Positions 10,032-47,593 of a stretch of 64,000 nt of DNA are shown here, piece by piece. This DNA comes from Candidatus Omnitrophota bacterium. GTDB taxonomy: Bacteria > Omnitrophota > Omnitrophia > Omnitrophales > Aquincolibacteriaceae. The stretch covers positions 5,440 through 69,439 of the forward strand of contig JBDRCT010000003.1 in the NCBI GenBank assembly GCA_043821445.1, given 5' to 3'. Position 1 is the first letter of the stretch. Every line of letters begins with the position of its first letter. The translations under genes were made by a program, and so were the position numbers. Under the pieces are notes generated by a model. That model ran no database searches. It had not been told where the DNA came from and saw only the letters and a program-made list of their open reading frames with translations.

Positions 10032-11957
10032 TCAAAACTTCAGCTTAGGGCCGAAAAGGACCGCCGGTTCTTCTTTTTCTTCATCCTCGGTCTCACCCAC
10101 ACCGGCCCCGGAATTTGACCCCTCAGAACGGGCCTCCAGCACCGAGAGCTCTCCCCAATCACCAATCTTTGAACGGTTCAATTCCAGAGTACGGTCTTTT
10201 TTATGGAGGACCGCCTCGATGCCCTTCCAGATGACCAGATTGTCCGGCGTCTGTATTTTTACCCCCGCGAATATATTGTCAAGCTTCAAATCCAGGGCCC
10301 CGTTCAGAAAGAAAACGGTCCGGCCTTTCCAGATCTTAGAATCCCTCAACGGCAAGTAAGGAAGAAACCCACGAAGCTGAATGATACCACGGTCATAATC
10401 AAGTTGCCCCCATTTTCCGTTGTGAATGTTGAAAATGCCCGAAACCTCGGGCTTTGCGAGATCCCCCTCCACGGAAAGCGTCCCCTCCAGAAGCCCCCCG
10501 AGCGCCTTTGGTAAAGGTTTCGCCGCGAACTGGTGCACAGTTCCAAGGTCAAAATCCGCCACGCGCAACAGGAGTTTTAGGTCCGAATTTTTCCAGAACT
10601 TGGTCACTCGTCCCGTGATTTGGAATTTTTTCCCCCATGTGCTCCGAATACCTGTGATCCCGGCAGGGCTTAATTCAAAAAAACCCTTTAAGTCCTCGAA
10701 TGGCTGACGGTCCAAAATAAAATAATCAGTTTCGTACTCCCCTTTAAAAAAAAGATCGCGGCCGTTCCAATGCGGCGATACGGAATGAAGAAAAAGTTTC
10801 CCTTGTGTGACAAGATCCATGCCAAAAATCTTGATATGATCTAAATGAAAGTTGAACACAAAATCTAGCCCGCGAAGATTGGAGTGGATCGCCATCCGCT
10901 TTGCGCCTTTTTCAAAACTCAGTTCATAGTTTCCGCTGGCAAAGTCAAGTTCCCCCTGACCCTGGTACCCCGAGTCCAAAACGATCGAATCTATTACAAA
11001 ACGTTTCCGATCCTGGTGGACTTTCCCGCGGAAATCAAAAACCTGCCCCTCCATGGGTTGAAAAGCTCCCTTGAGTGTCTGATGCGGCAGACTCAACGCA
11101 AAATCCAGTTTCATCCACGGGGTACCTTTCCCGATCCGGACATGCGCATTCACTTCGGGCTGCCCCTCATGATTCAAAAAAGCTCCGGAAAGCTCCGCAT
11201 ACCATCCGTATAATGTCCCCTGCAAATCATTAAAAAAAAGATCGCTTCCCACCCAACGGACTTTTCCCTTGAGCGCTTTAAACGGGAGCGGAATATCCTG
11301 CGCGAGATCCATGGCATCCAGTTCCAGCCAAAGATCATGTGTACTCTTGGAAGGATCCACCACGCCATAAATGTGGACACGCCCGCTCACCATGCCGGTC
11401 ATGCGGGCGTGAACGTCTATCTGGACTTTTTTATCAAGAGACGGCAGGATCTTGCCTTCTACTTCTTTGAGCAGAATCTCCTTGCCAAGCGACGAAAGCA
11501 AATAACGGATCTCTCCCCCTTTAAAATCCAAAGATGGCATCGAAAGTCCGGAAACTCCACTAGCGGCATTCTCAAAATAGCGGTAAGGAAATTGATCCTG
11601 TTCGATTAGAACCGCGGGATTCTTCAACACTACACCCACAGGGGCATCGAACTTCCGGCTCCAGAGCTGTTTCAGATCATAGCGAAAAAGAAGGTGGTCG
11701 GCACGGATCAGCTGGGAACCGCCTCGCGCAGAAGGGGTTTCGATGAGGATCTTTTCAAGCGCCAGCTGGTTCAGATGGTAGGGCTTGATCTCGCCAATGT
11801 GGACCGTAGCCTTAAGATACTCCCCGACCCTTTGCTCAGCAAAACGCTTGAAATCCGGCGAATGCGCGATACGCCCCAGAAGAAAATTGAAAAGAAGCAC
11901 GCCGGTCACGAAGAAAAGCGTAAAGAAGAAAAGAACGGCCTTTAGGAAAGAACGCAT
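10032..11957 (-). CDS. AsmA-family / YhdP-like large membrane-anchored protein (outer-membrane lipid homeostasis)
   Basis: 641 aa. Single N-terminal TM helix, long beta-rich periplasmic region, acidic C-terminus. Lies next to the mla operon. Family assignment rests on architecture only. Confidence 0.45.
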   Translation of the reverse strand: MRSFLKAVLFFFTLFFVTGVLLFNFLLGRIAHSPDFKRFAEQRVGEYLKATVHIGEIKPYHLNQLALEKILIETPSARGGSQLIRADHLLFRYDLKQLWSRKFDAPVGVVLKNPAVLIEQDQFPYRYFENAASGVSGLSMPSLDFKGGEIRYLLSSLGKEILLKEVEGKILPSLDKKVQIDVHARMTGMVSGRVHIYGVVDPSKSTHDLWLELDAMDLAQDIPLPFKALKGKVRWVGSDLFFNDLQGTLYGWYAELSGAFLNHEGQPEVNAHVRIGKGTPWMKLDFALSLPHQTLKGAFQPMEGQVFDFRGKVHQDRKRFVIDSIVLDSGYQGQGELDFASGNYELSFEKGAKRMAIHSNLRGLDFVFNFHLDHIKIFGMDLVTQGKLFLHSVSPHWNGRDLFFKGEYETDYFILDRQPFEDLKGFFELSPAGITGIRSTWGKKFQITGRVTKFWKNSDLKLLLRVADFDLGTVHQFAAKPLPKALGGLLEGTLSVEGDLAKPEVSGIFNIHNGKWGQLDYDRGIIQLRGFLPYLPLRDSKIWKGRTVFFLNGALDLKLDNIFAGVKIQTPDNLVIWKGIEAVLHKKDRTLELNRSKIGDWGELSVLEARSEGSNSGAGVGETEDEEKEEPAVLFGPKLKF

Positions 11958-20672: not shown

Positions 20673-21830
20673 ATGGAATTCATCGCAAATGCCACGTTAT
20701 TTCTCCTCCTTTTCATCCTGGCAGGCTGGATCTATCGCAGCTGGCGATCGTTATCCGAATTGAAGCAAGCACCCATCTTGAAGCTCACGGGGTTTGCATC
20801 CCGTCAAGGAAAAGTTTCGATCCTTATTCCCGTTAAGAATGAAGAGAAAAATATCAAGGATTGCGTCCAACCTCTTCTCGCCCAACTTCGTGAGGGCGAT
20901 GAGATCCTTGTCGTCAATAACTGTTCCGTGGACAGAACAGAAGCGATCCTTAAGAAGCTGGGGGCCATTGAGATCCGATCCGAAGATCTAGCTGGAAATT
21001 CACGCGCAAAGTTCAAATACCTTAACACCCCCTCCACTCCAGGGGGATGGACGGGCAAGAATTTCGCCCTTTACCTCGGGATCGAACATGCGGCAGGCGA
21101 CTGGTTGCTTTTCACTGACGCGGATACTTGCCACGAACCCGGGAGCCTCAACGCCACCCTTTCCTTTGCAGAAGAACGGAAGCTCGACCTCTTAACACTC
21201 CTGCCTCGTTGCCTCGCCCACGGCTTTTGGGAAGAGGTGATCCAACCCTGCGCAATGGGCTACATGGGACTTTGGTTCCCCGTCCAAAAGATCAATGATC
21301 CAAGATCCAAGGTTTATTTCGGGAATGGACAATACTTGCTCGTACGTGCGGAACATCACCGGAAGATCGGCGGACACGAGGGCGTAAAGGAAGCCTTTCT
21401 TGAAGACTTTGCGTTGATGAAAAAGACAAAAGAAACGGGAGCCCGCGGGATGTGCGCTTTCGGAATGGAGATCTACGGCACAAGAATGTATGAATCGCTT
21501 GACGCAATCTGGCGAGGCTGGCGCCGGATCTTCCTTCACGCATTCGAACAAAAACCGGAACTGATCTTGAAATACGGCCTGAGCGTTTTTTTCTTTTCAG
21601 TTTTCCCTTTTATAGCGCTCGTCATACTCCCTAGATCTTTCTCCGCCTCTCTGCTTCTTTGCGTCTTGATCCTGGGCATAACTCTCGCGACCGCCTTCAA
21701 GGCCTACGCCATCGTCAAAGCTAGAAGGCGTTATGCCTTCCTACATCCACTCGCGGCACTGGTCTTCACGGCCATTCTCCTCGACGCCTTTCAAATGGCC
21801 CTTCTCAAACGCCAAACCCACTGGCGTTAA
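20673..21830 (+). CDS. family 2 glycosyltransferase, polytopic membrane protein
   Basis: 385 aa. N-terminal TM, GT-A domain (ILIPVKNEEKNI...VVNNCSVDRTEAI, TDADT DxD-like), three or four C-terminal TM helices. The only plus-strand gene; divergent from lysS. Confidence 0.75.
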   Translation: MEFIANATLFLLLFILAGWIYRSWRSLSELKQAPILKLTGFASRQGKVSILIPVKNEEKNIKDCVQPLLAQLREGDEILVVNNCSVDRTEAILKKLGAIEIRSEDLAGNSRAKFKYLNTPSTPGGWTGKNFALYLGIEHAAGDWLLFTDADTCHEPGSLNATLSFAEERKLDLLTLLPRCLAHGFWEEVIQPCAMGYMGLWFPVQKINDPRSKVYFGNGQYLLVRAEHHRKIGGHEGVKEAFLEDFALMKKTKETGARGMCAFGMEIYGTRMYESLDAIWRGWRRIFLHAFEQKPELILKYGLSVFFFSVFPFIALVILPRSFSASLLLCVLILGITLATAFKAYAIVKARRRYAFLHPLAALVFTAILLDAFQMALLKRQTHWR

Positions 21831-21840
21831 CACAAAAAAA

Positions 21841-21872
21841 GCGTTATCTTGAATTTTTGCCCAAGATAACGC
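21841..21872. terminator. bidirectional intrinsic terminator between convergent GT2 and small secreted protein genes
   Basis: 11-bp stem gcgttatcttg / caagataacgc with a 10-nt loop. Preceded by A7 on the plus strand, which reads as U7 on the minus-strand transcript. Confidence 0.7.
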
Positions 21873-21892
21873 CTTTGTGAAATAAGCGGGTC

Positions 21893-22219
21893 TTAGCGAG
21901 AACTACCCTTGTTCGCCTTGCAATTCTTAGAACTCGACTTTCCGCTTTTTTTGGAGGAAAATTTTTCGGTGGAATTCTTTTTTGTTTTTTCCTTTTTCGG
22001 CTTCTCTGTTTTTATTTCACTAGCTTTTGCCCCCGTAACATTCACCCCATCATTCGCTTGGCCGGTCGTTGCATTGCTCACGGAAGTTTCTTCCGTGACG
22101 GTCGCCTGAGAATCCACAGGGACCATCGGATCCAGGTCCTGGGAGATCTCCGCCTGGGCTCCGGGAACACACAAATTCAATAACATCAAAACCAACATCA
22201 CAATGACCATCTTTTTCAT
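21893..22219 (-). CDS. small secreted Lys/Ser-rich protein (hypothetical)
   Basis: 108 aa. Sec signal peptide MKKMVIVMLVLMLLNLCVPGAQA, then a low-complexity K/S/T-rich tail. Last gene of the lipid operon. Confidence 0.5.
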   Translation of the reverse strand: MKKMVIVMLVLMLLNLCVPGAQAEISQDLDPMVPVDSQATVTEETSVSNATTGQANDGVNVTGAKASEIKTEKPKKEKTKKNSTEKFSSKKSGKSSSKNCKANKGSSR

Positions 22220-22265: not shown

Positions 22266-23363
22266 TCAGATTGCCAGATAACCCACCTTGACGGCGTAAC
22301 GGACCAGCGTCTTTAGAAAGGCGTGGTCGGTCTTCGGCATCGGGATCCCGGTACCGCGCAGGATCTCGCGGGTATTGGTGGTATCGAACGTAAGGTGCCC
22401 GTTCAAGTAGCCCAGATAAGGCTCCATCATCGCGAAGACCATTTGCTCTTGCGCTCCCATTTTGCTTTTTTTAAAATACTTCGGGTCGATCACCTCGATC
22501 GGAGGAATGGTCGAATATTCCTCTTCTCCCACCTGTAAGAGCATGCCGATTGAAGGCGGCTTGGACGCCACCACATGGAAAGTCTTATTAATGCTCCGCG
22601 GATTTTTAATGATCGCACAAGTCGCCCGGATCACGAAATCAATAGGCACAATATTGAACGTGTTCTCACGATGTGTGGGGATCTTTGAAAGAACTCCGTG
22701 AGCGAAAAGCTTGATGAAAGGATAGATCACATTGAAATCCGAGACTACGCCGGTCTCGGAATGGCCTACCACAATGCTCGGACGGATGATCGTGACCGGA
22801 AGACCCTTCGTCATTGCTTCGCGTACCTTGGTCTCGGCCTTGTATTTACTCGACTCATAGTAATTCGCAAACACAGGTTTGGCCGGAAGTTCATCCTCTT
22901 TGGAACAATGGTCCCACACGCTCCCGGCCACGAACGCTGTACTGAAATAGACGAACCGCTCAAGTTTTCCTTTTTTACGAAGATCCCAAGCCAGTTCGAG
23001 CGCGTGTTCCGTGCCTCCCACATTGATCTGCTGACATTCCTTTTCGGTCCCGTTCAAGGCCGTAAGTGCCGCAATGTGATAGAAAACCTTGCACTCGCGT
23101 TCCAGGTATTCAAGCTCAGTTTTTTTGATCCCAAATTTGTGATGGGTCACGTCCCCTTCGATCACATGGATGCGGGAACCCAGATGAGAATTAATGTCGA
23201 TCGAAGTAAGGATCTTTTTGACCCGCTCCAAATGGGAAGCGCGGTTCTTCGCGCGGGCCAGGAGCGCGATCTGGGCATTGGTGGTCCGGAGCAGTTCCTT
23301 GACAAGCTCCTGACCCAACACACCGGTGGCACCGGTCATAAAGATCACGTTATGCGTCATCAT
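22266..23363 (-). CDS. thioester-reductase-type SDR (NAD_binding_4 / fatty acyl reductase-like)
   Basis: 365 aa. Rossmann motif FMTGATGVLGQEL, YxxxK YESSKYKAE, FSTAFVAG and IRPSIVVG. These are characteristic of terminal reductase domains and acyl-CoA/ACP reductases. Confidence 0.7.
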   Translation of the reverse strand: MMTHNVIFMTGATGVLGQELVKELLRTTNAQIALLARAKNRASHLERVKKILTSIDINSHLGSRIHVIEGDVTHHKFGIKKTELEYLERECKVFYHIAALTALNGTEKECQQINVGGTEHALELAWDLRKKGKLERFVYFSTAFVAGSVWDHCSKEDELPAKPVFANYYESSKYKAETKVREAMTKGLPVTIIRPSIVVGHSETGVVSDFNVIYPFIKLFAHGVLSKIPTHRENTFNIVPIDFVIRATCAIIKNPRSINKTFHVVASKPPSIGMLLQVGEEEYSTIPPIEVIDPKYFKKSKMGAQEQMVFAMMEPYLGYLNGHLTFDTTNTREILRGTGIPMPKTDHAFLKTLVRYAVKVGYLAI

Positions 23364-24657
23364 ATCTCCTCAAAGCTAAACAAATGTTCTGACCTCCGAA
23401 CCCGAACGAGTTGGAGAGCGCTATATTCACATCCGAGCGCCGGGCCGTGTTCGGCACATAATCCAGATCGCACTCGGGATCCGGTTCTTCATAGTTGATC
23501 GTCGGCGGGATCACGGAATTACGCATGGCCATCAAACAAATAATCGCTTCGACCCCACCGGCCGCCGCGATCATGTGCCCGAGCATGGATTTCGTCGAGC
23601 TCACCGGAACTTTCGACGCGAAAGCGCCCATCACTTTTTTGATGACGAGGGTTTCCAGCAAATCGTTCACGGCGGTGGAAGTCCCGTGCGCATTAATATA
23701 ATCAATATTCTGAGGTCCAACGCAAGCTTTTTCCATAGCAATTTCCATAGCTCGTGCCGCGCCGCGGCCTTCGGGGTCCATATCCGTAAGACGGTATGCG
23801 TCCGCCGTCGAACCGTAACCCACGATTTCCCCATGGATCAGAGCCTTGCGCCTACGTGCGTGCTCCAGCTCTTCCAAGATCAACACCCCTGCGCCTTCGC
23901 CGATTACGAACCCATCCCGTTTTTTGTCGAACGGCCGCGAGGCTTTCTCAGGCTCCTCATTGCGGGTGGAAAGCGCCGTCAATAAACTAAATCCTGCAAC
24001 CCCCATCGGATAGATCATGGAATGGGAACCGCCTGCCATGATAACGTCGGCATCACCGCGCTTTATCCATTCAAAGGCTTCTCCGATCGCCTGTGACGAC
24101 GCCGCGCACGCCGTCAAACAATTCGAAACCGGCCCGCGAATATCAAAAAGACGTGTCAGGTGTGTCACGGTCATGAAGGGCTGATTTTCGAGCTCCCGCA
24201 AAGCACTCATATTCTTGATCGCCAATTGAAGATATTTCCCTTTATCTACAATGTCGGCGCCCCCGACGTTATCTTTCGTAAAAGACGGAACCAAAGTTTT
24301 AATGAACGGACCGAAATCAATCCCGCTGTCGCCTGCGCCAAAATAAATACCGAAACGGTTTGGATTTACGGCAAGCGGTTCCAGGCTGGCGCCTTTGTAA
24401 GCCTCCGCGGCGGCCTGAAGCGCGAAGAAAGTGCTCCGGCTCGCACAGCTGAGCGGCGGATTGCGCTCAAGCCATTTTTCAAATGAGAATCCCTTGACCT
24501 CACCTGCGATGCGCGTCGGAAAACGGCTCGCATCGAAAAGAGTAATGGGACCGATCCCCGACTTTCCTTGTGTCAAACGAAGCCAGGTATCACGCACCGA
24601 ATTTCCAAGGGGTGTGACGGCACCCATCCCAGTAACTACCACTCTACGCTTTAACAT
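23350..24657 (-). CDS. beta-ketoacyl-ACP synthase (KS-alpha, FabF-like; active-site Cys and both His present)
   Basis: 435 aa. TACAASSQAIGEA (Cys), NAHGTSTAVND (His), GHMIAAAG (His). Confidence 0.9.
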   Translation of the reverse strand: MLKRRVVVTGMGAVTPLGNSVRDTWLRLTQGKSGIGPITLFDASRFPTRIAGEVKGFSFEKWLERNPPLSCASRSTFFALQAAAEAYKGASLEPLAVNPNRFGIYFGAGDSGIDFGPFIKTLVPSFTKDNVGGADIVDKGKYLQLAIKNMSALRELENQPFMTVTHLTRLFDIRGPVSNCLTACAASSQAIGEAFEWIKRGDADVIMAGGSHSMIYPMGVAGFSLLTALSTRNEEPEKASRPFDKKRDGFVIGEGAGVLILEELEHARRRKALIHGEIVGYGSTADAYRLTDMDPEGRGAARAMEIAMEKACVGPQNIDYINAHGTSTAVNDLLETLVIKKVMGAFASKVPVSSTKSMLGHMIAAAGGVEAIICLMAMRNSVIPPTINYEEPDPECDLDYVPNTARRSDVNIALSNSFGFGGQNICLALRRYDDA

Positions 24658-25937
24658 TTTTTAAATACCAGGGACGCGTTTTGGCCGCCCAATCCGAATG
24701 TGTTCAGAACGGCCACGTTGACTTGGCAAGATTTCGCTTTATCCTTGACGAATGGCAATGAACATTCCGGATCCGGGCTCTCAAGATTGACGACCGGAGG
24801 CACCTGTCCCTTTTTCGTGGTCATGGCCGCAACCACCGCCTCCACGCTCCCGGTTCCATAAACCAGATTCCCGGTCACGGGTTTTACCGCGGTGACGTGA
24901 AGCTTTTTGAAAGTGGAGGCATAAAAAGAATGGACTGCGAGCGACTCCTGGACGTCCTCCTGCGGAATGCCGCTCCCGTTCGCCACAAGGACATCAACAT
25001 CCGCGGGTTCGAGCGCGGCATCTTCGAGGGCCCGGCGGATCGCCACGCGCTTTCCCGTAAAGTCATCCGAATCGCGCGGATCATAATTAAAATCCGAGGA
25101 GGATCCATACCCTACGATTTCAGCATAGATCGATGCCCCACGCTTTTTCGCACTTTCAAGAGATTCCAAGACCAAGATCCCCGCACCTTCTCCCAGCACG
25201 ATCCCGTCGTGTTTTTTGTCAAAAGGACAATAAGCTTTTTCAGGCAGCTCTTCGCGTGTCGAAAGAAGACCGAGAAGCTGGAAACGCGAGATCCCCATTG
25301 CGTTAAGCTTAGAGTCCGTGCCGCCCGCAAGCATGATGTCCGCATCCCCGCGCTCGACCACGCGGTACGCTTCTCCGATCGCTTGCGTGCCCGCGGCCGA
25401 AGACGTCGTGATGGTATTGTTCGGCCCCCGGAGCTGATTCGCAACGGAGATATGACAGGCCGGCATATTCGGGAGATATTTCAGGAACCAGAGAGGAAAA
25501 AGCGAGCGGATGCCATCTTGCCCGAACTTGGTCATGGAGAAATGTCCGTTCTCATCCAGACCATTCCTGAAGCCCACCCCAATTTCGTCGAGGTCGTTAT
25601 TGATGACCCCGGTCCCCAGCGTCACACCGATACGTGTGGGATCATAATGTTCCGGAGAAAGCTTGGCGTCTTTAAGCGCGAGGCGGCTTGCGGCAACGGC
25701 CATTTGGATCTCGCGGGACATCAGCTTGATGGATTTGCGGTTCTCGATGAATTCTTTCGGTTCGAACCCGGACAACATCCCAGCATATTTGAAAGAGGGA
25801 CAATGGAGCCTAAGAGGATCGGAGCTCTGGATCGCGGAACGCCCGTGAAGCGCAGCATCCCAGTAAGGTTCCCAGCCGTTCCCGCACGGCGTGATAACCC
25901 CGAAACCAGTGATCACGACACGGCGTTTTTTAGTCAT
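24651..25937 (-). CDS. KS-like chain-length-factor (CLF/KS-beta) partner
   Basis: KS fold. Active-site Cys replaced (TTSSAAGTQAIGEA) and both catalytic His replaced (LVANGSGIP; GNLVYGTGS). Start taken at MTKKRRVV (ATG 25937). 7-nt overlap with the KS-alpha gene. Confidence 0.8.
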   Translation of the reverse strand: MTKKRRVVITGFGVITPCGNGWEPYWDAALHGRSAIQSSDPLRLHCPSFKYAGMLSGFEPKEFIENRKSIKLMSREIQMAVAASRLALKDAKLSPEHYDPTRIGVTLGTGVINNDLDEIGVGFRNGLDENGHFSMTKFGQDGIRSLFPLWFLKYLPNMPACHISVANQLRGPNNTITTSSAAGTQAIGEAYRVVERGDADIMLAGGTDSKLNAMGISRFQLLGLLSTREELPEKAYCPFDKKHDGIVLGEGAGILVLESLESAKKRGASIYAEIVGYGSSSDFNYDPRDSDDFTGKRVAIRRALEDAALEPADVDVLVANGSGIPQEDVQESLAVHSFYASTFKKLHVTAVKPVTGNLVYGTGSVEAVVAAMTTKKGQVPPVVNLESPDPECSLPFVKDKAKSCQVNVAVLNTFGLGGQNASLVFKKC

Positions 25938-26016
25938 GATTACCTGCGCATTGTTTGATCCAGGACAACCATGACTGTCTGAGTCGCCCTGCATAAAGAA
26001 AAAAAAGACTTGGACA

Positions 26017-26532
26017 TCATGACGGTTGGTCGCCCTGTGTTATGGGCCGTCCCTCGATCTTGTTTTGAAGGATGGACGAGCCTCGCTCCGCTTCGCGAGC
26101 GGGTGGAAGGATCTTCTTGCGGATATTAAAATAATCCATGAAAGCCTCGTGAAATGTGATGGACTTCGTCTGCTCCGCGGAAAGACCGCTCACCGCCATG
26201 AGCAAAAGTTTCGCTCGTGCCACCAATCCTTCAGCACATGTGATCGTCGCTTCCAACCAGCCGCCTTCGGCCCCAAGACTTTCGGACCAAGCCTCGATCT
26301 GAAGGGGGGTGCCGGACTTCGGAATCTTTGTGATGGTCGCGTTTTCGATCTTTGCAAAAATGAGATCTTTTTGGTAATCACTTTCCGCACCGACCAAAAG
26401 ACCGCCGGTCTGCGCCATCATCTCAATAAAGAGAACTTCCGAACTATAGGGAGCTCGGGGGACTTTGGCGAAAGCAACGGCCTTTTCCCCTTTGCGGATC
26501 GAATAGACTTCTTCAAGAAGAAGCCAACGCAT
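26017..26532 (-). CDS. hotdog-fold (FabA/FabZ-like) dehydratase
   Basis: 171 aa. Single hotdog domain with the FIEMMAQTGGLLVG core. Embedded between the CLF and PPTase genes. Confidence 0.55.
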   Translation of the reverse strand: MRWLLLEEVYSIRKGEKAVAFAKVPRAPYSSEVLFIEMMAQTGGLLVGAESDYQKDLIFAKIENATITKIPKSGTPLQIEAWSESLGAEGGWLEATITCAEGLVARAKLLLMAVSGLSAEQTKSITFHEAFMDYFNIRKKILPPAREAERGSSILQNKIEGRPITQGDQPS

Positions 26533-26533
26533 G

Positions 26534-26974
26534 TTATCTCCAGATCATGGCCTGTGCGCCCACCAGGTCCCCGCTCCGGAAAAAATGCCCTTCCCCACGA
26601 TAAAGCTTCTTGGTGCGCCCGGTTCGCCATTCCATCTCAAAGTGATCGCCTCCGCATCGTTTCATCCGCATGTCTTGAAACCCCTCGAGCCCCATCCAGG
26701 CTTCACCGCATGCCTTGAAAAACGCTTCCTTGGCCGTAAAAAGTTCGGCAAATCCTTTCAGGGAAAGGTGATTGAAGGAACGGCGTTCCGAGAAATTCAG
26801 GAAACGCTCACGAACATAACCCCTGTGGCGAGAAAGGAATTGCCTTATACGATTGCGGGACACCAGATCAACACCCACGCCGCACAGTTTGGCGGGCCGT
26901 CCCACGATCGTTTTTTGAAAGCTGGACGAACCTTGTCCCAGACGGCGGGAGGATTTTCGTTTTACGAGCAGCAT
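26534..26974 (-). CDS. AcpS-type 4'-phosphopantetheinyl transferase
   Basis: 146 aa. GVGVDLVSRNRI (Mg/CoA site) and FTAKEAFFKACG (AcpS signature). True start may lie downstream of the tracked ATG. Confidence 0.7.
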   Translation of the reverse strand: MLLVKRKSSRRLGQGSSSFQKTIVGRPAKLCGVGVDLVSRNRIRQFLSRHRGYVRERFLNFSERRSFNHLSLKGFAELFTAKEAFFKACGEAWMGLEGFQDMRMKRCGGDHFEMEWRTGRTKKLYRGEGHFFRSGDLVGAQAMIWR

Positions 26975-27375
26975 TGATCGGAGCAGGAATTCTTGCCTAA
27001 GCGATCACTGAGATAACGAAGGAGCATCTTTACCGTAAAACAATCCGCCAACTTCGTGATCTGCGGATCTTTGGTGAATTCTTCAAGCTCAAGATAAGGG
27101 AGCTTCACGCGAAGTTCCGCAAGACCTTCCACCGTGACCACGCCTTCCCTCACGAAACGCTCATCATTTAAAAGATGGCTCGGAAAAAGATCGCCGGCTG
27201 GGATCTTGAGATCGAAAGCCTTTTCAAGGCGGAAAACGATATCGATAAAATCGATGGACTCCGCGCCAAGGTCCCGCTTCAGGGAAGCTTCCGGTGTGAT
27301 CTCGGATTCATCCACACCCAGCGCGCCAGCAAGTGTTTGCTGAACTTTCGTAAAGAGCTCTTTCTCCATGATCAT
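26962..27375 (-). CDS. acyl carrier protein with C-terminal extension
   Basis: 137 aa. ACP motif DLGAESIDFIDIV (Ser attachment site), followed by an extra ~60-aa tail ending with a Cys-rich SCSDQCCS. Confidence 0.8.
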   Translation of the reverse strand: MIMEKELFTKVQQTLAGALGVDESEITPEASLKRDLGAESIDFIDIVFRLEKAFDLKIPAGDLFPSHLLNDERFVREGVVTVEGLAELRVKLPYLELEEFTKDPQITKLADCFTVKMLLRYLSDRLGKNSCSDQCCS

Positions 27376-27397: not shown

Positions 27398-27826
27398 CTA
27401 TGACAATGCGGATGATTGCGGGTTCTTCACTCTGGCCAAAGTCAACTTGGCCGATACGGCGACATCGCCGTGGTAAAACAACTTCGCATCCCAGGTCGTT
27501 TCCTCGCCCTCGCTTTGCGTGAGCATGAGCCGGCTTTCCCATTCGTCGCCGGGCCTGAGATATTTCGTGAACCGGGTCGCGCGGATTTGCTTCAAAAAAT
27601 AATGCTGCCCCTCACCGCTCGCGATCGATGCCAAATACCGCTCTGCGGTCTGTTTAAGCATCTCAAGTGCCAGCACTCCGGGCAACACGGGAAATCCTGG
27701 AAAATGATCTTTAAAGAATTCGGAGTCTTCAGGAATACGGCCGCAGGCCGTAATCCCCTCTCCTTCTTTTATCCAAAGGACCTTTTCGATCGCAAGCGCT
27801 GTCATGATTAAAACTCCGGGAAACAA
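27398..27826 (-). CDS. FabZ-like 3-hydroxyacyl-ACP dehydratase
   Basis: 142 aa. Canonical HFPGFPVLPGVLALEMLKQ motif. Confidence 0.85.
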   Translation of the reverse strand: MFPGVLIMTALAIEKVLWIKEGEGITACGRIPEDSEFFKDHFPGFPVLPGVLALEMLKQTAERYLASIASGEGQHYFLKQIRATRFTKYLRPGDEWESRLMLTQSEGEETTWDAKLFYHGDVAVSAKLTLARVKNPQSSALS

Positions 27827-27873: not shown

Positions 27874-28503
27874 TTATCCGTTACTCTCTTTTTCCAAAAC
27901 ATAGATCCCGTTCAAAATTCGGAATCCCGAAAGCCAAGTATAAAAACTTTTAAAAGAACTGACTTCAAAACCAGCCGCTTTAAAAAACTCCTGCCACTCG
28001 CCATCCTTACGAAACTGATGCGGATGTGCCATGAATTCCACATTCAAAAGCCTGTCACGGCAAATGGTCCAGAACCGGCCGGCTGCATGATGATAAAGGT
28101 CCTCTACGACCACGACCTTCTGGCGCGTCACTCGCCGCACTTCTTTGAAAAGCGCCTGCGGATCCTGCGCGTGATGAAGCATGGTCATGAGAATCGTCAC
28201 ATTAAAACTTTGATCCGGGAACGGGATCTTGACGCCATCATACAGCACCACCGGCGCCTTCCGATAACCGGGGCTTACAACATCCAGAACCAGATGCTCA
28301 TGCCCCCGCGTCTTGAGAGGCCCGGCATAAAAACCCCAACCGCCGCCTAGATCCAGAATCCGGCTTTTCCGAGGGATCCGATTTTCAAAAAGCTGGACGA
28401 TCTTTTCTGCCCGGGTCTCAAGAGCGCTATGAGCGAAATACCTGACAATTCCGTCCAGCACCCGGCGCTGAAAGACCTGCAGATGATTCTTAATGATGTT
28501 CAC
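27874..28503 (-). CDS. class I SAM-dependent methyltransferase
   Basis: 209 aa. Motif I ILDLGGGWGFYAGPL. First gene of the lipid operon. Confidence 0.75.
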   Translation of the reverse strand: MNIIKNHLQVFQRRVLDGIVRYFAHSALETRAEKIVQLFENRIPRKSRILDLGGGWGFYAGPLKTRGHEHLVLDVVSPGYRKAPVVLYDGVKIPFPDQSFNVTILMTMLHHAQDPQALFKEVRRVTRQKVVVVEDLYHHAAGRFWTICRDRLLNVEFMAHPHQFRKDGEWQEFFKAAGFEVSSFKSFYTWLSGFRILNGIYVLEKESNG

Positions 28504-28554
28504 AATCTCGCTTGCAATAGTTTTTGAGCGTGAAATTATAGCATAGGCCTGTTT

Positions 28555-28674
28555 CCGCCCAAACTTTTATTTCTTTTCCATAAAGGTAGTCTGGACGGCC
28601 CCAATCTCAGCTAGGCTTCGATTGATAGGTATTGGGACCGCCCAAACTTTTATTTCTTTTCCATAAAGGTAGTC
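28555..28674. repeat. duplicated 37-bp element (two identical copies, 83-bp pitch) plus a second duplicated 17-nt motif in the leader of the lipid operon
   Basis: ccgcccaaacttttatttcttttccataaaggtagtc occurs at 28555-28591 and 28638-28674. tggacggccccaatct occurs at 28592-28607 and 28756-28771. A short palindrome ccctca/tgaggg lies at ~28730-28750. Confidence 0.75.
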
Positions 28675-28795
28675 GGCCCTGACTTTCCACTAGCTTTTTT
28701 GATGAGGAAGCCAGGACAGTCCCAACCAACCCTCAAATTAACCTGAGGGTCGGGGCTGGACGGCCCCAATCTTAGCGACGCTTCGCCCCGCTTCT

Positions 28796-37733: not shown

Positions 37734-39410
37734 TCAGGCCGGTTTGTCCTTGTTCGTATCGTCCGAGACTGCTGGTTTCTCAGAATCTTTCACGCCCGGC
37801 GCGGCATCCGTGGCAGCCGTTTTTTGCTGGGCTTGAGCATCTTTTGACTGGTCATTCTTCCCGTCAACTTTGGCACCCGCAGGCTGTCCCTGCGAATCCA
37901 CCGTAGTAACTGTTACAAAAAAGAGCGTTTCGTTTTTACTATTATCTGCCATATCCTGTCGCTTGGAGCGGAACAATTTCCCCAGCAGAGGGATATTCCC
38001 CAAAAAAGGCACTTTATCTTCTGTCGAACCCACACTATCTGACATCAATCCGCCGATCGCAATGGTCTGGCCGCTTTGGATCAATACCTGGGTCATCGCT
38101 TTGGTGATGTTGAAGGAGGGCGCTGCCAATCCTCCAGCACCCGGAATGAATGTGATCAGAGGACCGGCACTGCTTATTTCCGGCTTCAGGTCGACAAGAA
38201 TCTCCTCGGCCGAATTAATGTGGGGCGTAACATTCAAAACAATGCCCAAATTTCTGTAATTATAGCCAGACACTTCCATACTGCCGGTCGTTTCGTTCCT
38301 TTCAAAATTTGGGATCGGATAGTCCGACCCCACCTGAATACTGGCCTTCTGATTATTCAGGACAACGATCCGCGGATTGGAAATCACCTTCGTATTGACC
38401 CGGGTCTCCAGAAAATTTAACATTGCAGAAAAACTCGAGAAATCCAAAGTACCGTACTGAAGGGAAGGCGTATCCCCTGCTACCTTAGCCACATAAGGAA
38501 GGCCACGCGCATCGACTGGATTCACTACGTAATCTGCCACGGCGACGGCGCCGCCAGAGGTGGATCCCGCTAAAACTGGGAAAAACTGATTCAACGCCGG
38601 CGAAGGAGCTTCGGATGTTTGAGTAAATGGAAATGTTGTGGGACGAGTACTTCCGCTGGTAAGCCCGCCCGCAACATTCCAATCAATGCCAAGGTTTTCG
38701 ATATTAGAAACCTCTGTATTAACGATCTTGGAATCGATAAAAGCCTGGGAAGTAATCTTATCGAGTTTTTTGATCACTTCCCCGATGCGGTAGAGGTTCG
38801 TGGGGATGTCGGTCACGACAAGCATGTTGGTACGCTCCGAAGACTTTATCTTGCCGCGCTCACTCAGCATATCCATGACCGAGGCCTGGATCTCCTTGGC
38901 CTTGGAATAATTCAGGACAAAGGTCTTTGTCTCGACCGGCTCGAGTTTCATTTCTTCGCGGGTCGTCACACGGATAATGTTCCCATCGCGTTCGAAAACA
39001 TAGTTATAGGTCCTCAAGATGACACTGAGCGCTTTTTCCCAGGGAACATTATCCAACCGAACGGTCACAAGACCCTTCACCTCCGGACCGGTCACAATGT
39101 TGACGTTACTTTTCATGCTTAGCACGCGAAGCACGCTTCCGATGTCCGCATCCTTGAAATCCAAGCTGATCGTGTCATCCTCGGCTACCGGACCAGACGC
39201 CGCGGCAGGCGCTGAAGCCGCTTCCGGCACAGAAGCCGTTTGCGTTACTGCGACCGGATTGGGGTCTGCGGCAAGGACGACACCGGCCACACAAAAGAGA
39301 CACGGGAGCAATACAAGAAAAACGGATGTCCACGGTCTTGCAGCCTGGGCCTTTTGCGAAGGCGGGATAAAATGATGAGACGTTTGTTTCATGAAGTTCA
39401 CGAGCTCCAT
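37734..39410 (-). CDS. pilQ: type IV pilus / T2SS secretin (PilQ/GspD family)
   Basis: 558 aa. C-terminal secretin domain (VLIQSGQTIAIGGLMSDSV...VPFLGNIPLLGKLFRS). N0/N1-type N-terminal domains. Confidence 0.85.
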   Translation of the reverse strand: MELVNFMKQTSHHFIPPSQKAQAARPWTSVFLVLLPCLFCVAGVVLAADPNPVAVTQTASVPEAASAPAAASGPVAEDDTISLDFKDADIGSVLRVLSMKSNVNIVTGPEVKGLVTVRLDNVPWEKALSVILRTYNYVFERDGNIIRVTTREEMKLEPVETKTFVLNYSKAKEIQASVMDMLSERGKIKSSERTNMLVVTDIPTNLYRIGEVIKKLDKITSQAFIDSKIVNTEVSNIENLGIDWNVAGGLTSGSTRPTTFPFTQTSEAPSPALNQFFPVLAGSTSGGAVAVADYVVNPVDARGLPYVAKVAGDTPSLQYGTLDFSSFSAMLNFLETRVNTKVISNPRIVVLNNQKASIQVGSDYPIPNFERNETTGSMEVSGYNYRNLGIVLNVTPHINSAEEILVDLKPEISSAGPLITFIPGAGGLAAPSFNITKAMTQVLIQSGQTIAIGGLMSDSVGSTEDKVPFLGNIPLLGKLFRSKRQDMADNSKNETLFFVTVTTVDSQGQPAGAKVDGKNDQSKDAQAQQKTAATDAAPGVKDSEKPAVSDDTNKDKPA

Positions 39411-39423
39411 TGTATCACAAAAC

Positions 39424-39795
39424 CTATGCTTTTTCCTCTTCCCTTATCCAAAGCGTTTTTTCTTCCCCCCCCACAGAAATGACGACATGGTCCTTCAATA
39501 TCTTAACGACCGTTGCATCTCCCACAGTTTCACCCTTCAAATAGGACTTTCCGTTCAAAATGGCCATCGAATGTTCGCCCGGATCATAGATAATACCTTC
39601 CAGTTTAACGCCGGATGAGGTTGTGGACACTGAAGTGTTGTCGCCCCCGTCGAGCGGCACAAAGGGATCCCGCCTGTTACCGGAATCGTAAAGAACTTCA
39701 GAAGCGGCAAACACCCCCGACGCCAGAGCTAGCAGTGCTATCGCCAAAAAAAATGCGCTCTTCTTACTTCTTAGCATTCGCCACCTTCTTAGCAC
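39424..39795 (-). CDS. pilP: PilP-like pilot protein
   Basis: 123 aa. Signal peptide plus a small beta-domain (VKLEGIIYDPGEHSMAILNGKSYLKGETVGDATVVKI). Position between pilO and pilQ. Confidence 0.55.
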   Translation of the reverse strand: MLRRWRMLRSKKSAFFLAIALLALASGVFAASEVLYDSGNRRDPFVPLDGGDNTSVSTTSSGVKLEGIIYDPGEHSMAILNGKSYLKGETVGDATVVKILKDHVVISVGGEEKTLWIREEEKA

Positions 39796-40447
39796 CCGCT
39801 GCCTTCTTCGTCTTCGCGGGTGGCGCCACTTGCGGCGGAGCTTTCAGGATCGCCCAAAGCTTCAGCTCCGCAATATGCCGTCCCGGCGTTTTTTTATCCG
39901 GCACGACCTCGAGGCTCTGTATTCTTAAAAGTTTTCCATGACTCTCAATGCGGCTCATCAAATTGCCAAGGTCATGATAGCCGCCGTGCACCGTGAATTC
40001 ATAGCCACGCGGTTGATATTTCAAGTGATAGGGTGCCGGAAAAGCCACTTTCGCGGTCAAAGGCTTCGAGGTCAACACTTCCACGCGCGACTCACTCGCC
40101 ATTTTTGAAGCGGAGCCCAACAATAGATCCATATCCTCGACCGTAAAAACACGAGCCCAGGTACTTTCAATGAGCGAACCGAACACCTTCTGATTCTCTT
40201 CCCATTCCGGCCGTTTCTTATTCAGGTCATTGACCTGGCGGATCTGAGTTTCCATGCTTTGAATATCACGCCGGAGCATGGGACGCTCGATCCAAGCCGG
40301 AATGACCAGAAAAACCACCAACAATAAAAAACCTATCGCACACAAAAAACCGACCACCCAGGTTTTTTTATCGACACTTTTCAGAAATGCTATAACATCG
40401 GCAAAAGGCAGGTTGAGCGGCTTCATGGTTTGGAGGTCACTCCCCAT
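39764..40447 (-). CDS. pilO: PilO
   Basis: 227 aa. Single TM, coiled coil, periplasmic domain, K/A-rich tail. Gene order pilM-N-O-P-Q. Confidence 0.6.
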   Translation of the reverse strand: MGSDLQTMKPLNLPFADVIAFLKSVDKKTWVVGFLCAIGFLLLVVFLVIPAWIERPMLRRDIQSMETQIRQVNDLNKKRPEWEENQKVFGSLIESTWARVFTVEDMDLLLGSASKMASESRVEVLTSKPLTAKVAFPAPYHLKYQPRGYEFTVHGGYHDLGNLMSRIESHGKLLRIQSLEVVPDKKTPGRHIAELKLWAILKAPPQVAPPAKTKKAAGAKKVANAKK

Positions 40448-41001
40448 TCAATTTGAGCGACAAAAATGGTCCCTTCCGTCTTTTCGTTGGCCCTTTTAGA
40501 AGTCGCTACCGCGACGGATGTTTGGAGCGGCAATTTCGTTTTCAGTTTCTGGAAATATTCCTCGATCTGTTCAATGCCGGTCTGTGTGCGGGATGCCAAC
40601 ACCACACCCTCCAGGGTCAACCGGCATCCACCGCCTTCCCGCTCCACTTTGAGTTCTGTAAGCCATCCCCTTGGAGGCAGGAAATCGCTCGCCCAAAAAA
40701 GTATCTGGGTGATGGGTTCCTTATTGAGCACGTTCGTTTCCAGAAAATCTTTTTCGCCCTTCATTTCAACCGCAACCTGCTGCTCCAGGGTCTTCAGCTG
40801 TGCCATGAGGGGACTCAACCTCGCCCATTCCTTACGCACGCCTTCGTAGGCAGAGCGCGCCTTGAGATAGTCTCCGTAGAAAAAAACCGTCATAAGAAGA
40901 AAAAGCACCCCGGCCAGAAGAGCCAGTGGAATATAGGGAATGCGCGTCGCGTTCGATTTCCCTTTCAGGAGCTCCTGAGGCAAAAGATTGATCTTGATCA
41001 T
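40423..41001 (-). CDS. pilN: PilN
   Basis: 192 aa. Starts MIKINLLPQE (PilN signature), then a TM. Confidence 0.75.
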   Translation of the reverse strand: MIKINLLPQELLKGKSNATRIPYIPLALLAGVLFLLMTVFFYGDYLKARSAYEGVRKEWARLSPLMAQLKTLEQQVAVEMKGEKDFLETNVLNKEPITQILFWASDFLPPRGWLTELKVEREGGGCRLTLEGVVLASRTQTGIEQIEEYFQKLKTKLPLQTSVAVATSKRANEKTEGTIFVAQIEWGVTSKP

Positions 41002-42095
41002 TCTTCGCGAAGCCCCAGTCCCAGCGCTACGGGTAAGAGAGATGTATTCGTTTTGAGAAGTTCGGGATCAACGCCCGGGGCCCATTTGATCTTCGGAAGG
41101 ATGTCCATAGTCACGACCGGGATCTGCAATCCTTCGCTTAATGCCTTCAAAACGGCGGGATGAGACACTACACCGCTCAAAAAGAGTTTTGCGACAGGTT
41201 TCGATTGTCCGGATTGATCATGATAATAGTCAAAAGAAACACGCAGGTCCCGGATCAACCCTTCAAGACTTTCCGTGATCGCTTGCACTTCATCGGGCGC
41301 CAGAGTTCCATTATTTTCAAAAAGATTTTCGATCTTTTCATCCGCGAGACTGGAACGGGTCTTGAACCGCTTGAAAAGATCGTAGGCCCCGTAAGAAATG
41401 TCACGGACAAAGCGGGGCTTCCCTTCCCGGATGATCCCGAGGGTTGATATCTCAGTGCCAAGGTCCAAAATGCCGCTGTGCCTAGAGAAATCTTCGAGGT
41501 GAAAATATTCCAAGGCGGCCATCGCCGAAAGAATGTCGACGTCCACCACCGACAGGCGGCATTCCAAATTACGGAAGATCTCAAGCGTCGGCTCAAGTTC
41601 CTGGCGTTTGATGGCGACCAACATTACTTCCATCTTTACGCCGTCATCGGTCGCGAAGGCCTCCTCCACCACCGCACAATCGAGCACCACATCGTTCAGC
41701 TCGAACGGAATGTACTGCTCGGCTTCGTATTTCATGGCACTGCGGAGATCATCGGCTTTCATTTTCGGAAAAGGGATGAAACGGATCACAACTCCGTGCC
41801 CCTTGAGGGCCACGCGGATCCCGTCCTTCCGGAACTTCTTTCCGTCCAGGAACGGTTTCAGGATCAAGGACGGTTTCTGGTCCTGGGAAGCGTTCTTGAT
41901 AATATCGAGATGATGAACAAAAAGATGTCCGGGACGTTTTTCAAGTTCAAGCAGTACCGTCCGCATGCGGCCAAGATCACACGCCGTGACCTTAGAAACC
42001 GCCGTTTTTTTCGACAGGATCATGGATGTAACACCATTTAAAAAATTTGAGAACTGTTGATCGGGCGAAGCCAACTTGTTGGAATCGTTATTCAT
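40998..42095 (-). CDS. pilM: PilM (actin-like ATPase)
   Basis: 365 aa. FtsA/actin fold. Upstream of pilN with a 4-nt overlap. The true start is probably internal to the tracked ORF. Confidence 0.7.
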   Translation of the reverse strand: MNNDSNKLASPDQQFSNFLNGVTSMILSKKTAVSKVTACDLGRMRTVLLELEKRPGHLFVHHLDIIKNASQDQKPSLILKPFLDGKKFRKDGIRVALKGHGVVIRFIPFPKMKADDLRSAMKYEAEQYIPFELNDVVLDCAVVEEAFATDDGVKMEVMLVAIKRQELEPTLEIFRNLECRLSVVDVDILSAMAALEYFHLEDFSRHSGILDLGTEISTLGIIREGKPRFVRDISYGAYDLFKRFKTRSSLADEKIENLFENNGTLAPDEVQAITESLEGLIRDLRVSFDYYHDQSGQSKPVAKLFLSGVVSHPAVLKALSEGLQIPVVTMDILPKIKWAPGVDPELLKTNTSLLPVALGLGLREE

Positions 42096-42133
42096 GAGAG
42101 AGAGATTAACAGAAAATCTCCAAGAAAACAGCC

Positions 42134-42168
42134 AAAAAAAACCCGCCCTGCTTTTTTCAAGCAGGGCG
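42134..42168 (-). terminator. Rho-independent terminator of the pilin gene
   Basis: On the minus transcript: 10-bp stem cgccctgctt / aagcagggcg with a 5-nt loop, followed by U8. Confidence 0.85.
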
Positions 42169-42201
42169 AGTCGAAAACCACTTTGTCTTGTTCCTTACTG
42201 A

Positions 42202-42681
42202 TTACCCACCAATGGCCGTACCACCCGCGCAACCCGTATCGGCCGCGGTCGGCGCTACACCTGCCGTCGGACCATAAACAACACCCGCCTGGTCAATGCA
42301 GTAGGTGTTTTCCGCAGCAGCCGTCGGCGTCGCCAGCAGAGAATACGTGCTGGAAGGAGAGGCGACCGTAAGGTACGTCAGAGTGAACCCATGCTTGACT
42401 CCGGCTTCGACCCACGAATCATCAAGATACGCAGGGCCCGTCGCCGGAGCGGTCGTCAATGCGGCAATATCAGCCGGATAGTCCGGAGGATTCTGCGCGG
42501 CACGATAACTTTCAGCAGCTCCGCTGAATGTCCTCAGATCCGACTTGATGGCACCCTCATTGGCATTGATTCGCGCCCGGAGAAGATTGGGGATGGCAAT
42601 AGCGGCCAAGAGCCCGATGATCGCAACTACGATCATGATCTCCACCAGCGTAAAACCCTTCCTATTTAATTTGATAAACAT
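42202..42681 (-). CDS. pilA: type IV pilin (prepilin with N-terminal methylation motif)
   Basis: Start MFIKLNRKGFTLVEIMIVVAIIGLLAAIAIP is a class III signal (G|FTLVE). ATG at 42681 is preceded by AGGAGG. The tracked ORF has a 23-aa upstream extension. Confidence 0.85.
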   Translation of the reverse strand: MFIKLNRKGFTLVEIMIVVAIIGLLAAIAIPNLLRARINANEGAIKSDLRTFSGAAESYRAAQNPPDYPADIAALTTAPATGPAYLDDSWVEAGVKHGFTLTYLTVASPSSTYSLLATPTAAAENTYCIDQAGVVYGPTAGVAPTAADTGCAGGTAIGG

Positions 42682-42872
42682 GTTATTCCTCCTGTTTCTA
42701 TGTTTGCCACTGCCTACTACTAGCCTAAGCTGGTATACATCATACGACAATACGTTGGATAACTAAACTAGTTTTTTTGTTATCCGAGTTATATCCCACA
42801 ACTTTAATAAGCATCACTGAAGGGCCCTGAGGCAGATTCCTGCATGTTTTTGCGTCGGGAGGAAGGATTTCC

Positions 42873-44114: not shown

Positions 44115-44117
44115 AGC

Positions 44118-47578: not shown

Positions 47579-47593
47579 GATCGCCTTTTCATA

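Follow-up and report, generated by a model that had tools for sequence, protein, structure and literature searches.

Among described systems, the closest precedent for the gene pair studied here is the amxFabF2/amxFabFmut heterodimer of the anammox ladderane 'Cluster I', in which a ketosynthase (KS) is paired with a paralogue of mutated catalytic triad (bioRxiv 10.64898/2026.05.19.726425; PDB 9S5H/9S5I). The amxFabFmut gene lies just upstream of amxFabF2; the two proteins purify together, and neither is active without the other. In the crystallographic heterodimer, the tunnel is lined by residues Phe135, Thr138, and Val139 of the dead subunit, and the cap segment of amxFabFmut, which is disordered in the homodimer, becomes ordered (10.64898/2026.05.19.726425). 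Here, we analyzed a KS pair encoded in a stretch of 64,000 nucleotides (the window) from a Candidatus Omnitrophota bacterium (assembly GCA_043821445.1, contig JBDRCT010000003.1, forward-strand positions 5,440–69,439). The pair consists of a KS-beta/chain-length factor (CLF)-like FabF paralogue of 428 amino acids that contains the N- and C-terminal ketoacyl-synt domains of Pfam (24651..25937, minus strand), called the dead KS because of its lost triad, and an intact FabF-like ketosynthase (KS-alpha) of 435 amino acids (23350..24657, minus strand), called the live KS.

An active and a dead KS are also combined in the polyunsaturated fatty acid (PUFA) and heterocyst-glycolipid synthases, which go with an ACP-thioester reductase (HglB) and a glycosyltransferase (HglT), with reductive release of a fatty alcohol and its glycosylation to an envelope glycolipid. 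The Omnitrophota are widespread and nearly all uncultured, and to our knowledge nothing is known about their lipids. According to published work, antiSMASH calls 'ladderane' clusters without a known function in metagenome-assembled genomes (MAGs) of this phylum. Reasoning by analogy with described heterodimers, we consider it likely that the dead KS serves as the KS-beta-type, non-catalytic half of a KS heterodimer, and that this heterodimer works in a dedicated type II pathway resembling fatty acid synthesis (FAS). The operon that encodes it probably makes a specialized envelope lipid.

Results

The dead KS lacks the FabF triad and its gene overlaps that of an intact KS

A first reading of the window, referred to as the original prediction, had proposed that the dead KS lacks the Cys-His-His triad, that the adjacent KS keeps the motifs TACAAS, AHGTST, and GHMIAAAG, and that the two genes overlap by 7 nucleotides. 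We set the register of the dead-KS motifs TTSSAAG, LVANGSGIP, and GNLVYGTGS by residue-level HMMER alignments to the FabF structures 2GQD (S. aureus), 1J3N (T. thermophilus), and 4LS5 (B. subtilis). The second Ser of TTSSAAG aligned with the catalytic Cys of the FabF motif TACATG, the Asn of ANGSG with the first catalytic His (AHGTST), and the Asn of TGNLV with the second one (TGHLLG). The Cys-His-His of FabF thus corresponds to Ser-Asn-Asn in the dead KS, and a mis-registration of the motifs, the error against which the original prediction had itself warned, was ruled out. Among the other catalytic and gating residues (Lys335, Glu349, Thr305, Thr307, Phe400, His303, and His340 are given in FabF numbering), Lys335 and Glu349 are kept, while Thr305 is changed to Ser, Thr307 to Ile, and the gating Phe400 to Leu, so that the FabF catalytic set (Cys-His-His plus Thr305, Thr307, and Phe400) is absent from the protein. 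Across the family, only Lys335 and, mostly, Glu349 persist among the eight catalytic and gating residues of FabF.

The dead KS scored 359.9 bits with the FabF model TIGR03150 and 358.3 bits with the KAS II model NF005589, below their respective cut-offs of 493.75 and 387. It does have the two-half thiolase fold of KAS II, with both Pfam halves and a confidently predicted AlphaFold2 monomer model (pLDDT 87) whose best structural matches were canonical FabFs (TM 0.85–0.89); low-confidence stretches occur only at residues 111–120, 141–160, and 281–290. Its longest possible open reading frame (ORF) is 24651..25994 on the minus strand, and the start at 25937 was preferred over that at 25994, since a length of about 428 amino acids is shared by nearly all of the 120 closest homologs. 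On the opposite strand, a 353-amino-acid ORF (24897–25958, plus strand) lies wholly within the dead-KS gene and is most likely a shadow ORF. An exact-sequence look-up of the dead-KS protein returned no record. From these comparisons, the dead KS appears to be a full-length, non-catalytic FabF paralogue.

The live KS carries the three motifs that had been predicted, with C184, H324, K356, and H361 in its own numbering, and equivalents of T305, T307, E349, and F400, and thus all eight FabF catalytic and gating residues. None of these sites varied among the 58 partner KS sequences, except for a single alignment gap at F400. The live KS scored 479.8 bits with NF005589, above the cut-off of 387, was only 5 bits short of the TIGR03150 equivalog cut-off, and has an insertion of about 19 residues relative to FabF at the cap position described below. 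The 7-nucleotide overlap is also as predicted: the sequence ATGTTAA (24651..24657, minus strand) contains the end of the dead-KS frame (...AAA AAA TGT TAA) and the start of the live-KS frame (ATG TTA AAG), an arrangement that implies, at the level of gene structure, translational coupling of the two proteins. The junction was similar in 64 related loci, in which the genes overlapped by 1–14 nucleotides (47/64) or were separated by a gap of 0–4 nucleotides (10/64), and in operon-type loci the live KS directly follows the dead KS wherever the contig continues. In addition, a search of representative sequences found natural fusions of about 800–880 amino acids among the nearest relatives, in which a KS with Cys-His-Lys-His precedes a dead KS. 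Fusion proteins with an intact KS followed by a triad-less KS include P0123, P0126, P0154, P0158, P0166, P0179, P0201, and P0230.

The dead KS is under purifying selection and is most conserved in its cap and N-terminal half

The closest homologs of the dead KS are 56–95% identical and come from Candidatus Omnitrophota MAGs wherever the source is named. In comparisons with five orthologs, dN/dS was 0.044–0.066 for the dead KS and 0.044–0.088 for the live KS, which indicates that the dead KS is functional and not decaying. Its ORF is intact in more than 100 homologs, down to 56% identity, and the Ser-Asn-Asn substitutions recur in the 30 closest ones; this recurrence and the strong purifying selection argue that the dead triad is not a chance reading.

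The mean column entropy was higher for the dead KS (1.01) than for the live KS (0.74), and the two proteins differ in where conservation lies. The most conserved part of the live KS is the Cys block, whereas the conservation peaks of the dead KS are at residues 106–120, 136–165, and 196–225 (column entropy 0.18–0.60), which correspond to the cap and the N-terminal half, and the regions of its former His and Phe motifs are less conserved (0.69–1.74). Segment 106–165 forms a helix-loop-helix cap, with a 14-amino-acid insertion relative to FabF, and this region overlaps the low-pLDDT part of the monomer model. The conservation pattern points to a dimer interface. At the former Cys position the family has mostly Ser, Ala in many separate branches, and Thr once, and all changes at this codon are single-nucleotide steps from TCN. 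Because the Ser/Ala exchange recurs across the family tree, this site seems to need a small side chain and not a nucleophile.

Relatives of the dead KS show intermediate stages of triad loss

To place these residues in the family, related loci were collected by a scan with one genome per species. This yielded 80 loci, in which the identity to the dead KS was 40–97% for Omnitrophota and 37–45% for Planctomycetia. Along the lineage toward the window, the triad is lost in the order C-H-H, S-H-H, S/A-N-H, and S-N-N. The deeper relative L041 (6622–7914, 45% identity) still has Cys-His-Lys-His, yet Thr307 is already changed to Ile, Glu349 to Gln, and Phe400 to Leu. The loci L037–L040 (47–49% identity) have Ser-His-Lys-His, orthologs at 55–80% identity have Ser/Ala-Asn-Lys-His, and those at 81% identity or more have Ser-Asn-Lys-Asn. 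The codon path consists of single steps, TGT to TCN to GCN and CAY to AAY. The family seems to preserve the sequence of events by which a KS active site is lost once its partner has taken over, with T307 and F400 going first, followed by Cys, His303, and His340.

One sequence departs from this order. P0119 (L082, 5433–6725) has Cys-His-Lys-His, is nested among Ser-Asn-Lys-His sequences, and occupies the same operon position. Its intact triad may be either a reversal or a retention accompanied by parallel losses elsewhere. Gene conversion from the neighboring KS was excluded, since the flanking motifs (TTSCAAG, VAHGSGIP) are those of a dead copy and each change involves a single nucleotide. Another dead-KS ortholog, P0117 (L083, 2279–3565), has Cys-Asn-Lys-His. 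More broadly, the nearest clusters at 50% identity consist almost entirely of Cys-less FabF-like proteins with many different residue sets. In the tree listing the dead copies were grouped, apart from the partner-KS block and from canonical FabF-like sequences (trees were neighbor-joining, without bootstrap or other support values).

The dead KS resembles described KS partners but belongs to none of their families

As in the anammox pair, the dead subunit of the window has a mutated triad in a FabF fold of full length and is encoded directly upstream of an intact FabF-like KS together with a dedicated acyl carrier protein (ACP) and a FabZ variant. Both systems occur in organisms of the Planctomycetes-Verrucomicrobia-Chlamydiae (PVC) group, and in both a canonical FabF is the closest structural neighbor of the dead subunit. 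However, the two dead proteins are not orthologous: the dead KS scored 171.8 bits with amxFabFmut (9S5H_C, Kuste3606), below any canonical FabF, and its triad residues are Ser-Asn-Asn against Val/Thr-Asn-Glu in anammox. None of the 150 nearest representatives (0/150) was of the VNKE type. No B12-radical-SAM (S-adenosylmethionine) or phytoene-desaturase gene was found within 10 kb of the operon, and the only radical-SAM gene in the window encodes a RimO/MiaB-type methylthiotransferase (51543–52874). Instead of the radical-SAM and desaturase genes of anammox, the locus has genes for a phosphopantetheinyl transferase (PPTase), a second hotdog protein, a methyltransferase (MT), a thioester reductase (TR), and a family 2 glycosyltransferase (GT2). 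Membership in the ladderane clusters was rejected given the missing amxFabFmut orthology and the missing adjacent radical-SAM or desaturase gene.

The arrangement also resembles the actinorhodin KS-alpha/KS-beta pair (1TQY), in which an intact KS and an adjacent Cys-less homolog are produced by coupled translation and the tunnel sets chain length. In the window, however, the dead copy comes first, the Cys position is occupied by Ser and not by Gln, and the operon contains enzymes of the reductive loop (a dehydratase, and a ketoreductase (KR) in relatives) and no cyclases or aromatases. The dead KS scored 161.5 bits with the actinorhodin CLF (1TQY_B) versus 287 bits with S. aureus FabF, and it does not belong to the CLFs of aromatic type II polyketide synthases (PKSs).

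ApeO/ApeC of aryl polyene (APE) synthesis and Iga11/Iga12 of ishigamide synthesis are KS/CLF heterodimers from FAS-like clusters of Gram-negative bacteria. APE clusters, too, encode a methyltransferase, a GT2, and an MMPL protein, the last of which has its counterpart in relatives of the window, and their ApeI-like dehydratase acts together with another hotdog protein. In contrast to ApeC, which is half-size, the dead KS has 428 amino acids and both Pfam halves, and Iga11 scored 175 bits with it, well under canonical FabFs. Release by a TR also differs from APE synthesis; no third KS such as an ApeR-type second KS, aryl-starter adenylation enzyme, or thioesterase is present in the operon. Membership in the ApeC family was therefore rejected on the grounds of size and of the missing third KS.

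Cys-less FabF paralogues are also known from Planctomycetes, where Rhodopirellula baltica has RB3714 and RB4527 (Rattray et al. 2009, PMC2649909). In these, as in the dead KS, the Cys is replaced, and the Glu-His-Lys-Asn of RB4527 recurs in L063 and L068, but the planctomycete paralogues carry Asp or Glu at the Cys position, and the inspected examples are orphans without a KS or an operon. The KS-dead-KS fusions found among relatives resemble the KS-CLF didomains of PUFA and Hgl synthases, which are multidomain, type I-like megasynthases, whereas the Omnitrophota operon is fully dissociated (type II).

Functionally, the locus shows two traits of a KS-beta/CLF: its KS homolog has no active-site Cys, and the gene is coupled in translation to that of the neighboring intact KS, within a cluster that has its own ACP. 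An obligate heterodimer would be in line with the anammox pair and the natural fusions, and control of chain length through the interface tunnel is hinted at, indirectly, by the strong conservation of the cap and interface region and by its 14-amino-acid insertion. From the comparisons above, both KSs of the pair are FabF derivatives, and the dead KS is best described as a FabF-derived CLF analog outside the PKS CLF and ApeC families. The 'chain-length-factor type' of the original prediction therefore holds in the functional sense of a triad-less KS next to an intact one, but not as a family assignment, given the bit scores. The original prediction had also taken the KS-alpha/KS-beta arrangement as a hallmark of type II iterative systems and not of primary FAS. 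Its type II character is borne out by the ACP, PPTase, dehydratase(s), and TR of the operon. A KS/dead-KS pair is, however, no longer diagnostic of PKS over FAS, because anammox amxFabF2/amxFabFmut is FAS-like. It is still plausible that the pair serves a dedicated pathway and not primary FAS, because the ACP is dedicated and extended, release is reductive, a GT2 gene is present, FabD, FabH, and FabI are missing, and the window has no KR.

The locus encodes a probable second active/dead pair and release and transfer enzymes

The operon is transcribed from the minus strand in the order MT, dehydratase (DH1), ACP, PPTase, second hotdog protein (HD2), dead KS, live KS, TR, and a small protein. 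The first gene (27874..28503) encodes a class I SAM-dependent MT (Methyltransf_11/23/25) that is conserved in Omnitrophota loci and weakly resembles DVU_1556 and BioC, far under the cut-offs. A role as a BioC-like malonyl-ACP methyltransferase that masks the primer was unsupported (23.5 bits against a cut-off of 185). Next to the MT gene, at 28504–28795 of the window, there is no KR or aldo-keto reductase (AKR) gene, unlike in most Omnitrophota relatives. DH1 (27398..27826) is a FabZ/ApeI-like 3-hydroxyacyl-ACP dehydratase (PF07977) whose catalytic His and Glu are intact in the alignment to E. coli FabZ 6N3P (HFPG...PGVL..E), and its orthologs carry precomputed ApeI-like matches. The dedicated ACP (26962..27375, 137 amino acids) is conserved in the operon, matches PF00550 over residues 10–64 only, and is under all AcpP equivalog cut-offs; the length of its C-terminal extension of about 55 amino acids is kept by relatives (proteins of about 130 amino acids). 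It is followed by an AcpS-type 4'-phosphopantetheinyl transferase (PPTase; 26534..26974; PF01648, 4.4e-11), which is present in most related operon loci.

HD2 (26017..26532) is a degenerate FabZ-like hotdog protein in which, by alignment to FabZ 8AYD, Lys stands in place of the catalytic His while the Glu is retained. The protein has no Pfam match and only weak NCBIfam FabZ matches, and its gene lies directly upstream of the dead-KS gene in nearly all related operon loci. HD2 is probably a silent partner of DH1, a pairing suggested by the FabZ active site, to which one subunit contributes the His and the other the Glu, and by the ApeI-type precedent. By this analogy, the operon may have another active/dead pair in DH1/HD2, and a heterodimer of these two proteins would contain just one complete active site, like the ApeI-type dehydratase pairs.

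Downstream of the live KS, a stand-alone thioester (acyl-ACP) reductase of the NAD_binding_4/terminal R-domain type is encoded (22266..23363; PF07993, 1.3e-56). Its gene overlaps the live-KS stop codon, and the protein matches TIGR01746 with 173.6 bits and is similar to the R-domain of MxcG. Omnitrophota loci of at least 47% identity all have the TR gene after the KS, provided that the contig extends that far. The last operon gene (21893..22219) encodes a Ser/Lys-rich protein of 108 amino acids with a signal-peptide-like N-terminus, homologs of which occur only in the window's subclade (L002–L007, L009–L010, L012, and L016–L018). A terminator-like hairpin with a 17-bp stem and a T-run (21837..21876, minus strand) separates the operon from the convergent gene of a membrane GT2 (20673..21830, plus strand; PF00535) of the HpnB/CruG-like, lipid-acceptor type (HpnB 133 bits and CruG 118 bits, both under the cut-off). 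Most Omnitrophota loci that are long enough to include this gene have it at the corresponding place and in the same orientation.

The operon is flanked by housekeeping genes in conserved synteny (AspRS, Lol-like ABC, BCAT, McsB/ClpC, and Mla downstream; Def, AsmA, CCA enzyme, RmuC, RNase G, and a type IV pilus/type II secretion system (T2SS) block upstream), and the GC content of the window shows no island. The type IV pilus/T2SS-like block (37734–48037, minus strand) encodes a secretin and T2SS-C-like, PilM, prepilin-type, and T2SS-F proteins, along with two tandem T2SS-E ATPases with MshEN domains and a separate MshEN-only protein of 147 amino acids. A 641-amino-acid ORF between the ClpC and Mla genes (10032–11957, minus strand) has no Pfam match. 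Elsewhere in the window there are an apparent fusion of a CDP-alcohol phosphatidyltransferase (PgsA-like) with PgpA (phosphatidylglycerophosphatase A) of 337 amino acids (50552–51565, minus strand), and a giant ORF of at least 3667 amino acids that runs past the window end (52987–63990, minus strand).

The core of the operon is conserved in two phyla and combined with different tailoring genes

In Omnitrophota relatives of at least 47% identity, the gene order is [AKR], short-chain dehydrogenase (SDR)/KR(-), MT, DH, ACP, PPTase, hotdog, dead KS, KS, TR, GT2(-), and MMPL, although DH1 was undetected by the scan in L037–L040. Homologs of the relatives' KR, AKR, and MMPL genes were searched in the window and none was found; in their stead it has the small Ser/Lys-rich ORF (21893–22219). 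The window is collinear over 21 kb with loci L002 and L003 (86–91% nucleotide identity), which likewise have no KR, AKR, or MMPL genes nearby. FabD, FabH, and FabI/enoyl reductase genes were found in the operon of none of the 80 loci, and the 64-kb window has no other fab genes.

A more distant group, formed by Planctomycetia and some Omnitrophota, retains the core DH-(KR)-ACP-PPTase-hotdog-dead KS-KS. A variant operon with a DH-KR-ACP-PPTase-hotdog-dead KS-KS core is present in L043, L042, L048, and L050, where the dead copy has Ala-Ser/Cys-Lys-Phe. In L043 (12576–19097 and 4337–7358), the core is followed by genes for a HAD phosphatase, a class III aminotransferase, an adenylate-forming enzyme, a lysylphosphatidylglycerol (LPG)-synthase-type membrane protein, and GlmS; judged by their annotation, these genes suggest an amino- or sugar-linked lipid. 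Because the tailoring genes of Planctomycetia differ, the core behaves as a cassette with varied release and tailoring enzymes. Planctomycetia also have orphan Cys-less FabF-like genes (L061, L063, L064, L066–L070, L072, L076–L078, and L080) with Glu or Asp at the Cys site, for example in a Glu-His-Lys-Asn set. They have no adjacent KS, ACP, or dehydratase gene, and their neighbors in L066, L068, and L078, the three loci scanned for this, are unrelated (RND pump, SecA, DprA).

Discussion

We propose the following model for the pathway. The dead KS would be made in step with the downstream live KS, and the two proteins would form a 1:1 heterodimer in which only the live KS loads the acyl chain on its Cys and decarboxylates malonyl-ACP. 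The dead KS would provide the dimer interface and, with its helix-loop-helix cap, close off the acyl tunnel of the live KS; by this means it may stabilize the live KS and set which chains are extended and to what length. Ketoreduction would be carried out by the operon KR in most relatives and presumably by FabG in the window organism, and dehydration by DH1 with the His-less hotdog protein, with the MT and the operon's own ACP and PPTase acting in the same pathway. The TR would then free the ACP-bound product reductively as an aldehyde or alcohol. The adjacent GT2 would probably glycosylate this product, and in relatives the MMPL transporter would export it.

Several observations weigh against this model. 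Since KR, AKR, and MMPL genes are missing nearby in the window, L002, and L003, either housekeeping FabG and FabD are needed or the pathway is incomplete in these organisms. Both P0119 and L041 keep Cys-His-Lys-His in the 'dead' position, which means that non-catalysis is not family-wide, and the orphan Cys-less FabF-like proteins of Planctomycetia indicate that partner-independent roles are possible for such proteins. Moreover, we infer the heterodimer and the shaping of the tunnel by analogy, with a structure model that is of the monomer, and what the pathway makes and what the GT2 does are read from the gene neighborhood.

The pair could instead be the organism's primary elongating KS, in a FAS that runs on FabF and a dead FabF, with neighbors that are merely lipid-metabolism genes. 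The live KS is indeed very FabF-like, passing NF005589 and nearly reaching TIGR03150, the locus lies amid housekeeping genes in conserved synteny and without a compositional anomaly, it holds the only fab-type genes of the 64-kb window, and the anammox heterodimer initiates FAS-like chemistry. A search of the literature on a separate type II FAS in Omnitrophota found nothing usable. We nonetheless regard this explanation as unlikely: the operon ACP is atypical in length, extension, and AcpP scores, the co-operonic TR destroys the acyl thioester that phospholipid synthesis needs, a lipid-type GT2 and an MMPL exporter go with the pair, none of the 80 loci has FabD, FabH, or FabI in the operon, and Planctomycetia join the same core to quite different tailoring genes, as is typical of a specialized cassette. 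About equally unlikely is that the dead KS acts independently of the neighboring KS, as a homodimeric acyl-ACP binder, sequesterer, or scaffold, or as a regulator. The amxFabFmut protein of S. brodae alone crystallizes as a homodimer, and the orphan planctomycete proteins stand in unrelated contexts; however, a KS is encoded directly downstream in every operon-type locus with a continuing contig, with a stop/start overlap, the cap and interface are the most conserved part of the dead KS, and neither anammox protein is active alone.

Residual chemistry of the dead KS is a less probable explanation still. Its Ser could be acylated as an O-enzyme nucleophile, in the manner of an acyltransferase, or the protein could be a malonyl-ACP decarboxylase of the KSQ type that primes the chain. 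In its favor, the Cys position is most often occupied by Ser, Lys335 never varies, and the second His survives in most of the family; decarboxylation of malonyl-ACP has also been reported for aromatic PKS CLFs that have Gln at this site. Against this, the window protein has no Gln and has lost both His, Thr307, and Phe400, which serve in malonyl binding, decarboxylation, and the oxyanion hole, and Ser is replaced by Ala in many separate branches and by Thr in one. Ser as a replacement nucleophile was rejected because of this recurrent exchange. The possibility that the dead KS is a decaying, functionless duplicate would fit the progressive loss of catalytic residues along the lineage and the faster evolution of the dead than of the live KS, as measured by mean column entropy. 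It is effectively refuted by the ORFs that are intact in over a hundred homologs, by dN/dS values of about 0.05, and by a gene order and coupling conserved in two phyla, and the fold is predicted with confidence. A non-catalytic subunit of a heterodimeric KS thus remains the reading that we prefer.

These results have a practical consequence for annotation, since genes for dead KSs are now named 'beta-ketoacyl-ACP synthase family protein' or 'synthase II', names that call for caution. After the anammox work the pair itself is a modest surprise; the value of the locus lies in a conserved operon from an uncultured phylum, in its probable second active/dead pair, and in the series of triad losses. 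Beside the anammox system, it would be a second, independent FabF-derived KS/dead-KS system. The natural intermediates with C-H-H, S-H-H, S/A-N-H, and S-N-N could be used to test whether heterodimerization preceded catalytic loss and which residues of the dead subunit determine chain length. For the organism, a conserved and chromosomally anchored operon predicts a dedicated lipid in a phylum with few cultures. Tentatively, and with more doubt than for the KS pair itself, the core may represent an undescribed lipid cassette of the PVC group in which condensation and dehydration both take place on obligate active/dead heterodimers, used in Omnitrophota to make a fatty- or polyene-alcohol envelope glycolipid with reductive release and MMPL export. 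If this is true, the envelope glycolipid made by the cassette could serve as a biomarker for this uncultured phylum.

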